Shown: piece by piece, positions 1 through 3,824 of the stretch
How positions within the stretch are numbered: the stretch's first letter is position 1
Layout of the letters: each line of letters begins with the position of its first letter
DNA from: an uncultured cyanobacterium
Lineage (GTDB): Bacteria; Cyanobacteriota; Cyanobacteriia; Cyanobacteriales; CAWUOF01
Length of the DNA stretch: 64,000 bases
Direction: 5' to 3'
Assembly: GCA_963744145.1 (NCBI GenBank)
Contig: CAVUSO010000001.1
Location: 6,624,001 to 6,688,000 of the forward strand
Program-made: the position numbers and the translations under genes
Notes under the pieces: generated by a model
Database searches by the model: none
What the model was told of the DNA's origin: nothing
What the model saw: the letters and a program-made list of their open reading frames with translations, nothing else

Positions 1-2468
1 CTAATAGTAAATTTGACTGGGATAAACTTAACTGGTTAAATAGCCAATATTTGCATGAGTTACCGATCGCGGAACTTACAGATCTGTTAATCAGCTATTG
101 GGAAGAAGCTGGATACAAATTTGATCCAATTAGCGATCGCGTTTGGTTAGAACAACTCACTACCTTAATTAGTCCGAGTTTAGTCCGACTCCAAGATGTA
201 GTAGAACTTAGTAAAGTCTTTTTTGTCGAAGAAATCGAATTTAAACAAGAAGCGATTATTCAACTAACCAAAACGGAGTCCATCACTATTCTCAAAGGAA
301 TTCTTGAGCATCTTGAGCAAGATTATCAACTAAATAAAACTAATGCTCATCGATTACTCAAACAAATCACTAAAGAATATAAGACCAAAAAAGAACAACC
401 TCAAAGATTGCTAAGAGCAGCTTTAATGGGTGAATTACACGGAATTGATATCATCCAATCTTGGTTGTTACTTCATCAACGTGGATGGGATAAAATGCGA
501 TTACGGTTAGCATTAAATCTCCCAGATTCACTAACCGCGATCGCGGAAGAATTATCGGAGTCGGTGACTGAGGAGTCGGAAAATCAAAACCTTGAACTTA
601 GTCCAGTTAAAGACCAGGTAACTAGAAATTCTTTAGTAGAACCAATGAATAATGAACCGCTTAACCAAGAGGAAGACATAGCTCCGATTACATCAAACTC
701 TGAATCCGAGCAAATCATCAACCATTCAGTTGCATTATCCCAACTAGAATCAGAGTTAGCAAAAATTGGAAATGAATTACAGGAAAGTGAAACAGCGCAA
801 TCGCAATTAAATGCTCAACTCCATGATACTCAAATTAAACTCCAACAAACCGACCAAGATAAATCTCATTTAGAGTCAGCATTACAAGAAATTCAAGCAC
901 AATTAAATCAATCGTCCCAGGAAAAAGAACAACTCCAAACAGTAATTCAAGAACATCATCAGCAACAAGCACAGTTTCAATCGCAAGTAGAGGAAATTAA
1001 ACGTCACTTAACCAAAGTAGAACAACAAAAATCCCATTTCCAATTGCAAGTGGAGGAAATTAAACAGCAATTAATCAAAGCTAATCAACAAACAGTTCAG
1101 TTCCAAGCAGAAATTGAAAATAGTCAGAAACAAAAAGCTCAACTACAGTCACAAATTGCTACCAATGAAACACAATTAAATCAAGCACATCAGCAAATAT
1201 CCCAACTGCAAGATGAGCTAAAAAAAGCATCCCAAGTAAAAATAAATCTAGAGTCAGAATTAGCAACTCGTTCACAGCAAATACTGGACAAAGAAAAGCA
1301 ATTACAGCAAGTTGAACAAGAGCGCAATCTGGGACAAGCTCAATTAGCAGAATTAGACCAGAACCGATCGCAACTTCAAGCACAAATTGCTCAACTGGAA
1401 TCGGAGTTAAACCAATCTAGTCAAGAGCGTTCTGGACTTGAATCCCAGTTAACAGAAATCCAAACTCAGTTACAACAAATTAAACAAGAACGTACTGAGA
1501 TTTCCACTCAACTAAGTAGCACTCAAACTGAGTTAAAACAAGTTGAACAAGAGCTAAAGTTGAGACAAGCTCAATTAGGAGAATCAGACCAGACTCAATC
1601 GCAACTTCAAGCACAAATTGCTCAACTAGAATCGGAGTTAAAGCAATCTGGTCAAGAACGTTCTAGACTTGAATCCCAGTTAGCAGAAATGCACATTCAG
1701 TTACAACAAACTGAACAAGAACGTACTCAGATTTCTAGTCAATTATTTCTAGTTCAGGGACATTTACATCAGAGCGAACAACAGCGGATTCAATTACAAT
1801 TACAGTTAGAGGAAGCAGAACGAAAATATTCTCATTTTCACTATCAATTCACCATCACTAAATCCCAGTTGCACCAATCTGAAGAAACGCGAAATCAAAT
1901 ATTATTGCAATTAGATGAGGTGGAAAGACAACGCTCTCAATTTGAAAAACAGCTCGAAGAAGTTCAAGCTCAATCCTACCAAACTCAACTAGAAAAAACT
2001 TTTGTTTCTAGTGAACTATTGCAATCCAATCAGATGCGATCGCAGCTATCCCATCAATTGAGTAATCTCCAAGAACAGTTGCAAAAATTACAGCAAGAAT
2101 ACTCGCACACTTACAACAAGTTAGAGCAAACTGATTATGACCGATCCTATTTTCAGTTTAGTCTATCCCAAGCTTACTTAAAAATGAATGAAGTCCAAAA
2201 AGAAAAATGGGATGTAACATCTCAGTTATTGAAATCTAAGGAAATACAAGCTCAACTGAAATATCAATTAGCCGATCGGGAAATTCAACTCCAGCAAGTC
2301 CAACAAGAACAAAGTAACACCCGATCGCAATTGACAGAAATTAATCAAGAGCGATCGCAATTAGAAACCAAAATCTCTCAATTACAATTGCGAAAAGCAT
2401 TGTGGATTTGGGGAATAGTAATTGCTTTACTTGTGGGGTCTTCTCTGACTTTGATATTGGTAAAGTAA
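1..2468 (+). CDS. gltX: Glutamate--tRNA ligase, 5'-partial, with ~650-aa C-terminal extension (acidic linker, Q/E-rich coiled coil, terminal TM helix)
   Basis: Frame is open from the window start (NSKFDWDKLNWLNSQYLH..., LRAALMGELHGIDI), matching the GluRS anticodon-binding region. It continues into heptad-rich sequence and a hydrophobic tail ALWIWGIVIALLVGSSLTLILVK. Confidence 0.8.
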   Translation, partial: NSKFDWDKLNWLNSQYLHELPIAELTDLLISYWEEAGYKFDPISDRVWLEQLTTLISPSLVRLQDVVELSKVFFVEEIEFKQEAIIQLTKTESITILKGILEHLEQDYQLNKTNAHRLLKQITKEYKTKKEQPQRLLRAALMGELHGIDIIQSWLLLHQRGWDKMRLRLALNLPDSLTAIAEELSESVTEESENQNLELSPVKDQVTRNSLVEPMNNEPLNQEEDIAPITSNSESEQIINHSVALSQLESELAKIGNELQESETAQSQLNAQLHDTQIKLQQTDQDKSHLESALQEIQAQLNQSSQEKEQLQTVIQEHHQQQAQFQSQVEEIKRHLTKVEQQKSHFQLQVEEIKQQLIKANQQTVQFQAEIENSQKQKAQLQSQIATNETQLNQAHQQISQLQDELKKASQVKINLESELATRSQQILDKEKQLQQVEQERNLGQAQLAELDQNRSQLQAQIAQLESELNQSSQERSGLESQLTEIQTQLQQIKQERTEISTQLSSTQTELKQVEQELKLRQAQLGESDQTQSQLQAQIAQLESELKQSGQERSRLESQLAEMHIQLQQTEQERTQISSQLFLVQGHLHQSEQQRIQLQLQLEEAERKYSHFHYQFTITKSQLHQSEETRNQILLQLDEVERQRSQFEKQLEEVQAQSYQTQLEKTFVSSELLQSNQMRSQLSHQLSNLQEQLQKLQQEYSHTYNKLEQTDYDRSYFQFSLSQAYLKMNEVQKEKWDVTSQLLKSKEIQAQLKYQLADREIQLQQVQQEQSNTRSQLTEINQERSQLETKISQLQLRKALWIWGIVIALLVGSSLTLILVK
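1308..1769 (+). repeat. Intragenic tandem duplication, 231-bp period (77 aa = 11 heptads)
   Basis: CAAGTTGAACAAGAG at 1308 and 1539; peptide SQLQAQIAQLESEL occurs twice. Confidence 0.85.
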
Positions 2469-3143: not shown

Positions 3144-3278
3144 TATATGTTAGAATTGAGCTAAGGTTAGATGCAAATATTGATTATTGCTATTAAAATA
3201 AACTTAATCTAAAATAAATTAGTTCCCTACCTGTTCTAAATTGTGTTATTGCTTTACCTAAGCGTTAGGAAAAAATCA

Positions 3279-3824
3279 ATGTCTAATATTCCTAATTATG
3301 GCAAATTAAGTGATCCGAATATCTCTGAATTTGATCATTGTCAAGGGTCAATTCAAAGCCCCATTATCTTAATCGAATATGGTAGTTATCAATGTCCCGA
3401 TTGTTGTAAAATTTCTAGGATAATTCATGATATTCAGCAACAATTAGGAGAGCAATTGTGTTTTGTATTTCGACATTTTCCCCAATCATCTCTTTATCCT
3501 CAAGCCCAAAGAGCAGCTGAAGCAGCTGAAGTAGCTGGAGAGCAGAATATGTTCTGGCAAATGCACGAAATACTATTTAAAAACCAACATTCTCTTGAAG
3601 ATGGTTTTTTAGTAGAATATGCGGTTAATATCGGTTTAGATATGTCACAATTCCTGAGAAGTTTTTCGGCGCGATCGCATAATAATCGGATTCAAAGAGA
3701 TATTCAAAGTGGTCTTAAAAGTGGTGTTAATTATACCCCAGTCTTTTTTATAAATGGTAACCGATATGAAAACAATTATGATCGAGAAAGTTTATTATCA
3801 TTATTAGATTCCCTGATTTGTTAG
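3279..3824 (+). CDS. DsbA/thioredoxin-fold protein
   Basis: EYGSYQCPDC (CxxC), FVFRHFP, GVNYTPVFFING. Confidence 0.85.
   Translation: MSNIPNYGKLSDPNISEFDHCQGSIQSPIILIEYGSYQCPDCCKISRIIHDIQQQLGEQLCFVFRHFPQSSLYPQAQRAAEAAEVAGEQNMFWQMHEILFKNQHSLEDGFLVEYAVNIGLDMSQFLRSFSARSHNNRIQRDIQSGLKSGVNYTPVFFINGNRYENNYDRESLLSLLDSLIC

Follow-up and report, generated by a model that had tools for sequence, protein, structure and literature searches.

The window, by which we mean the whole 64,000-nt stretch of DNA that was analysed, opens inside a gene whose reading frame (+3 of the window) is open for 821 codons, at positions 3-2468. The whole ORF encodes 1135 amino acids (G000:C1:6623061-6626468, G000 being the genome of the window), with 939 nt of it preceding the window, and has a GTG start with AGGAG shortly upstream. 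The parts of the encoded protein are listed in Table 1. Residues 1 to ~487 form a complete glutamyl-tRNA synthetase (GluRS) fold with a score of 452 bits against TIGR00464 (cut-off 290), and the anticodon domain is recognized as Pfam Anticodon_2 (E 1e-13). The structural model of this head has a pLDDT of 95.2 and a TM score of 0.93 to PDB 2cfo, the Thermosynechococcus enzyme, and rests on an alignment of mostly intact GluRS, an earlier 6-sequence alignment having given a poor fold with a pLDDT of 58. The ~555-aa rod contains no proline, and a single register holds through 8/8 blocks of 70 aa, with two positions of the heptad hydrophobic; if straight, it would be about 80 nm long. The best 19-aa hydropathy window in the tail reaches 2.49, compared with at most 1.15 elsewhere in the protein. 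All descriptive points of the original prediction, namely a GluRS domain continuing in frame into an acidic linker, a heptad rod with a duplication, and a final RK followed by a hydrophobic end, were borne out.

Table 1. Parts of the fused protein encoded at the left edge of the window, and loci of the ligase-headed rods discussed in the text.
Feature	Position	Strand	Description
Rossmann domain of head	before window (gene start G000:C1:6623061)	+	altered motifs TPSLTG, QIGP, QDEDL, TRSKS
Degenerate GluRS head, in-window part	1..521	+	residues ~315-487; end of stem-contact fold and anticodon-binding domain
Acidic low-complexity linker	522..731	+	~70 aa, net charge -14
Q/E/L coiled-coil rod	732..2396	+	residues 558-1112, ends in RK
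Internal duplication	1302..1745	+	213-nt direct repeat, 1302-1514 and 1533-1745, spaced 231 nt (77 aa, 11 heptads); 87% nucleotide identity
C-terminal hydrophobic helix	2397..2468	+	single, 22 uncharged aa, then Lys and stop
Ligase-headed rods	L102:3638-6286 (G128), L133:3833-6418 (G226), other f38 loci		motif-eroded LigA OB-Zn-HhH fragment

The ORF is open throughout, with no stop codon between the domains. In assembled contigs of one soil DNA run, which may come from the source sample, the gene is free of indels and joints; these contigs bridge the head-linker junction, and no single one of them spans the whole gene. G001, which belongs to a different genus and is the sole further genome of this family in our collection, has the fusion too: it harbors an intact gltX as well as a 1102-aa orthologue with the same layout. 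Since the fused layout recurs in another genus and the soil-run contigs contain no indel, an assembly artefact is unlikely to be its source. Two further strain variants of the G001 fused protein were found, one of which is 21 aa shorter in the rod.

Some cyanobacterial synthetases are anchored by a CAAD domain. A Pfam scan of the G000 fused protein detected no CAAD domain (PF14159) at E<=0.1, and a custom profile built from 119 GluRS-CAAD tails gave ~0 bits on its tail versus 138 on a control, in agreement with the predicted single-helix tail-anchor design on a long stalk, distinct from CAAD. The Pfam coiled-coil matches of the protein were generic, and all but ATG16 fell below the cut-off. 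The CAAD domain of the G000 genome is located elsewhere, at L053 (C1:7297744-7297959), in a 1170-aa ORF read as IleRS from its sequence motifs, and a stand-alone CURT1-like gene is found at C1:7216051.

Two genes of the G000 genome encode GluRS domains. The second, for which the original prediction had recommended a search, is intact and located at C1:6240329; it encodes a protein of normal length (482 aa) that is 56% identical to the fused head, and lies behind tRNA-Asp, the usual locus, which also holds the intact gltX of G001. As the prediction had anticipated, a catalytic domain lies upstream of the window, but the HIGH/KMSK motifs expected in it are degenerate. The fused and housekeeping copies differ in TPSLTG/APSPTG, QIGP/HIGT, PLQN/PLYN, QDEDL/RGEDH and TRSKS/KLSKR, respectively. 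The HIGH and KMSKS motifs have an established role in ATP binding. An excerpt of PMC7373986 gives them as the signature motifs of class I synthetases. The HIGH motif, whose His is present in 98-100% of references, reads QIGP in G000 and EIGT in G001, and the KMSKS-type motif (KLSKR) reads TRSKS and KLSEA. Among 59 near-invariant positions defined over 133 bacterial and 119 cyanobacterial GluRS, 12 are lost in the G000 head and nine in the G001 head, compared with one and none in the housekeeping copies; at least nine are lost in 2/252 references (13 in one, nine in the other). The reference with 13 differences, P0237, a bacterial GluRS representative of 507 aa, may be another dead paralogue or a misalignment.

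H16 is missing from both heads. The G000 head also lacks R210, G211, H214, K248 and R252, and the losses of the G001 head include H16E, K251E and R252A. In the glutamate network R6/D200/R210 (equivalent by motif offset to Arg5/Asp195/Arg205 of T. thermophilus), G000 shows R210Q, G211D, H214L and Y192Q, while it retains R6, S10, E42, D43, D45, R48 and D200. Arg205 of the T. thermophilus enzyme belongs to the main glutamate network according to a partial text of PMC2978374. Losses are spread over every GluRS sub-domain, affecting 18-38% of conserved sites. Against inactivity it can be said that the G001 head retains all of R6, D200 and R210, and that the lost Tyr is described as non-critical (PMC2978374, in part). 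Since its catalytic motifs are gone and the genome has an intact paralogue, we nevertheless infer strongly from the sequences that the fused head is catalytically inactive. It is also distinct from GluQ-RS, scoring 185 bits against a cut-off of 277 and possessing an anticodon domain. A DNA search for the R120H pattern (HYDNRHRxLT) returned 12 genome and four metagenome loci, of which one was G001, 14 were GluRS of ordinary length with intact-looking motifs and one was noise; R120H is therefore not an inactivating change.

The ATP site of G001 was lost through substitutions other than those of G000, and the fold is kept in both. The two heads have lost 25/222 conserved positions in common, versus 12.2 expected, and 19 of these 25 changed to different residues. 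At variable sites the dead heads are as similar to each other as the housekeeping copies are (identity 0.40 each), but at conserved sites less so (0.67 versus 0.95). Among conserved residues, polar ones were not lost significantly more often than hydrophobic ones (p 0.05-0.75). Counted by the simple Nei-Gojobori method, and with dS close to saturation, dN/dS is 0.325/1.20 = 0.27 for the heads, which are free of frameshifts, and 0.153/1.94 = 0.08 for the housekeeping pair. Going by the dN/dS ratio, the shared loss sites and the identity at variable sites, purifying selection preserves the fold of the head while the active site erodes.

In the tree, the two heads form one clade (100/99) with terminal branches of 0.86 and 0.81, compared with 0.35 and 0.12 for the housekeeping copies. 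The best tree places the dead pair away from the gltX of their own genomes, near the f11 and GluRS-CAAD lineages; sisterhood with their own gltX was not rejected by an AU test on 19 of the 37 rows (p 0.37). Among long homologues, the head matches GluRS-CAAD proteins best, at 54-59% identity. A GluRS profile matched 386 of 401 genomes of the order, six of them twice: G000, G001, three genomes of genus g72, and G299. The last was rejected as a second case, its two matches being one gene with an insert; this sole gltX (G299:C94:105099-106832) is a 589-aa frame into which ~96 extra codons are inserted in frame at residue 185. A profile search of 1.84 billion representatives gave two full-length GluRS-headed matches among the best 150, and all searches together found no GluRS-headed members beyond G000, G001 and the two G001 strain variants. 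Word searches with the tail returned known proteins only, a metagenome scan with the tail returned none, and the ESM Atlas gave no match at 0.9 or more.

The rod and anchor occur outside the GluRS fusion. An anchor profile detected one copy in each of 19/401 genomes of the order at E<=5e-20, with the next matches at 5e-5; ten of the 19 had served to train the profile, and a single genus accounts for the remaining nine. A class-wide search of 400 other genomes yielded no new member, the matches consisting of coiled-coil noise at E>=1e-4. The anchor motif of the family is Q-[TK]-P-x-L-x4-[VI]-x2-A-[LF]-x2-GS-x-[IL]-x-W, of which the G000 end is a divergent member. Profiles made from family f19 alone and family f38 alone detect each other (E 1e-6 to 1e-8) and find the G001 anchor at E 9e-6 and 7e-5, respectively, or 5e-8 when combined. 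The match of the G000 anchor to the other families is weak (E 1.9 in the full protein), although it ranks first among 7545 C-termini (E 0.004), and the G000 and G001 proteins share 72/200 gapless identities versus 34+/-7 at 48 other heptad offsets. We place G000 in the family through its G001 orthologue and the mut7C neighbour that the latter shares with other members, mut7C being absent beside the G000 gene.

In one family the rod is bare. Examples are a rod of 583 aa in G137, reached by the tail profile and ending in a similar anchor, and one of 721 aa in G202, which precedes Mut7-C in a genome with one gltX only. Most of the G137 rod (L022:1725-3476) is a 35-aa unit of five heptads repeated in near-identical form, suggestive of a recent expansion in length. 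Calculated from sequence, rod lengths across members span 47-82 nm; this near-twofold range and the 21-aa difference between strains argue against a fixed ruler. The rod is absent from most sampled members of the families that bear it (in f19 it is present in 4/11). Coiled-coil proteins of family f32 were considered and rejected as members: their hydrophobic segment is N-terminal, their C-terminal domain is of another kind, and the anchor profile does not match them. Large and rod-like (loci L104-L106), these proteins carry a long Q/S/E coiled coil, and their C-terminal domain is made of repeats. Taken together, rod and anchor constitute a single-copy family of their own with three head states (bare, GluRS and ligase fragment), an indication of a family of structural proteins that has yet to be described.

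In family f38, the rod end is the C-terminal partner in a fusion with the NAD-dependent DNA ligase LigA, of which the OB, zinc-finger and HhH part is present and the adenylation (catalytic) and BRCT domains are missing. Such ligase-headed rods occur in three genera, and the fragment has the same length, ~260 aa, in all. The head was seen in 9/13 f38 matches, once across a gap of Ns and once, in G307, with the OB part out of frame; a tenth was deduced across two contigs, and the other three matches are fragments. Both ligase-headed genomes that were checked contain an intact ligA, to which the head is 45% identical within its own genome. The ligase heads have lost GRTG, RA(S/T)LHN, RKAGEIIP and the GIG of the last (fourth) HhH, often to acidic residues, and retain the C4 zinc finger, the first two HhH turns and a Lys-rich helix. 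Their dN/dS is 0.16-0.24, compared with 0.06 for an intact ligA pair. The erosion of the ligase head follows the same pattern as that of the GluRS head. No common new surface was identified on the two kinds of head.

The bare rod of G137 lies ~1 kb behind the second, soluble gltX of genus g72 and before a Mut7-C gene. The same gltX-rod-Mut7-C order was found in G119 across two contigs, and in G170 the contig ends after gltX. This second gltX (L022:4462-5949 in G137, L020:1332-2819 in G119 and L023:532-1977 in G170) is intact, with 1/59 near-invariant positions changed. Genus g72 accordingly holds two intact gltX: the tRNA-Asp locus has one fused to CAAD, and the other is the soluble gene, 77% identical in G137. 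In the tree, the extra g72 gltX groups with the GluRS-CAAD of its own genome, apart from the dead heads, which calls for either gene conversion or a second duplication that landed in the same locus. In G001, Mut7-C directly follows the fused gene; the neighbours in G000 differ. Upstream of the G000 gene (L001:2307-8852) lie genes for an acsF-like rubrerythrin-domain protein, a Ser/Thr kinase with TM2, and DUF2996, SH3 and WD40 proteins, with acsF ~6 kb away; none of these is found on the G001 contig. A DsbA-like thioredoxin gene downstream (window 3243-3824) is likewise absent beside the G001 orthologue. A promoter scan was at chance level (two found, 1.2 expected).

The closest known likeness is to the CAAD synthetases (GluRS-, IleRS- and ValRS-CAAD), which also combine a cyanobacterial class I fold with a C-terminal membrane anchor. 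These have two helices and a Pro/Thr/Ala/Glu linker, whereas the G000 protein has one helix and a 555-aa heptad rod. The origin of CAAD synthetases has been ascribed to fusion between adjacent genes, and they have been judged active for want of paralogues (PMC4893482, in part); by its gene content, g72 is an exception to the published statement that they lack paralogues. The two features that define CAAD synthetases, the domain itself and sole-copy status, are both absent from the G000 protein, whose genome holds an intact gltX, and its head, unlike theirs, has lost the catalytic motifs. To our knowledge, neither HisZ nor YadB is rod-borne or membrane-borne. HisZ and YadB/GluQ-RS resemble the head in that a synthetase fold is retained beside the housekeeping gene (an excerpt of PMC7373986); YadB, however, is active and lacks an anticodon domain, whereas the G000 head has one and looks inactive. 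The rod recalls coiled-coil-rich cyanobacterial proteins such as Syc2039 and LfiA/LfiB, whose long heptads it shares. Some of these possess a transmembrane helix and are tied to cell shape or division (bioRxiv 10.1101/674176, in part), and the main text of that source contains no mention of 'tRNA' or 'ligase'. The anchor of Syc2039 is N-terminal, in contrast to the C-terminal one of the G000 protein. In plastid MFP1 and the eukaryotic tail-anchored golgins, a long membrane-anchored coiled coil reaches a target with its far end; the likeness of the rod family to these would be one of functional analogy only. Searches of the open-access literature yielded no account of a duplicated or inactive membrane-bound cyanobacterial GluRS, or of a truncated ligase on a coiled coil, though supplementary tables of CAAD and coiled-coil surveys could list such proteins. 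The protein appears to join two known kinds, the synthetase pseudoenzymes and the membrane-anchored coiled-coil proteins.

Because the rod occurs bare and with two unrelated dead heads, we propose, with roughly an even chance of being right, that rod and tail anchor are the functional unit, a strut or tether which has twice captured the fold of a housekeeping enzyme as a dead cap. The C-terminal helix, preceded by basic residues in a protein without a signal peptide, would insert in the membrane and leave the N-terminus in the cytoplasm. As an unbroken heptad run from one membrane, the rod is most likely a parallel coiled-coil oligomer of 50-80 nm, and it could act as a strut or tether from the thylakoid or plasma membrane. 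Its calculated lengths of 47-82 nm are of the same order as the inter-thylakoid space of 43-58 nm given for three model strains in part of PMC6920412, a loose match. In the family of G000, a spare gltX would have fused to the rod and then lost ATP and glutamate binding, the head persisting as a folded, non-catalytic cap that serves through its bulk or surface; the head position would have gone to a spare ligA fragment in another family. That the heads are kept whole makes a folded cap or binding tip probable. A bolder version, which we hold only tentatively, is that the rods form a new class of tether that recruits duplicates of essential nucleic-acid enzymes (GluRS, DNA ligase), kills their catalysis and uses the fold as a swappable binding tip, holding tRNA, DNA or their machinery 50-80 nm off the membrane.

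Among the alternatives to a strut with a dead cap, two seem to us unlikely to about the same degree. One is that the dead heads still grip tRNA or DNA, with the rod setting the distance from the membrane, as proposed for MFP1. Both heads are nucleic-acid-binding folds; the GluRS heads both keep D45, R48, YDNRHR, K427, K437, R442 and R445, and the ligase heads keep the zinc finger, the HhH turns and the Lys-rich helix noted above. Both GluRS heads are nevertheless changed at R162, R180, A307-A309, P455 and L457, which we take to be tRNA-facing, and it also counts against a retained grip that the GluRS losses fall in all sub-domains, that the OB motifs and the fourth HhH GIG of the ligase are gone, often in favour of acidic residues, and that head-less members exist. 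The other is that only the rod is functional and the heads are slowly decaying accidents of fusion, kept since misfolding would ruin the rod. The existence of bare rods would suit this, as would the three- to fourfold relaxation of selection on the heads, the frame-disrupted OB part of the G307 copy, and the extra intact gltX ~1 kb upstream of the bare rod in g72, a ready precursor. An accident is harder to reconcile with a 480-aa GluRS domain that has stayed full-length in two genera at dS >1, though in-frame deletion would be easy, or with a 260-aa ligase fragment constant in length across three genera.

GluRS supplies both translation and tetrapyrrole/chlorophyll synthesis, and the head might act at the membrane as a GluRS-specific decoy. 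By binding glutamyl-tRNA reductase, GatCAB or tRNA-Glu, it would adjust how much goes to chlorophyll and how much to translation. It would loosely resemble FLU, a thylakoid protein that down-regulates GluTR (PMC4726326, in part). The presence of hemA in G000 and G001, and of acsF near the G000 gene, is compatible with such a decoy, but the acsF neighbourhood does not recur on the G001 contig and the orthologous rod bears a ligase fragment or nothing in other families, so we consider it very improbable. Least credible is the original reading of an active GluRS held tens of nanometres off the membrane, for which the full fold, the score above the TIGR00464 cut-off and the retained R6-D200 set speak, and against which stand the lost catalytic residues of both heads and an intact paralogue of the kind that CAAD synthetases are reported to lack (PMC4893482, in part). 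The structural role that the original prediction offered as its alternative fits better, given that this rod and anchor are also found head-less or behind a dead head of another kind.

The bare, adjacent but unfused, and fused and dead states are all present in living genomes, and together they offer a natural series for the birth of a pseudoenzyme: an extra intact gltX beside a bare rod in one genus, then a fused and inactivated form in a related family, with an independent parallel in the ligase. As the head scores above the GluRS equivalog cut-off, it would be annotated as an active membrane-bound synthetase, and surveys of anchored synthetases would be distorted by it. The rods would represent a new single-copy family of long membrane-anchored proteins in a few filamentous-type cyanobacterial families, and they are candidates for structures that space thylakoids or hold the translation or DNA machinery nearby.
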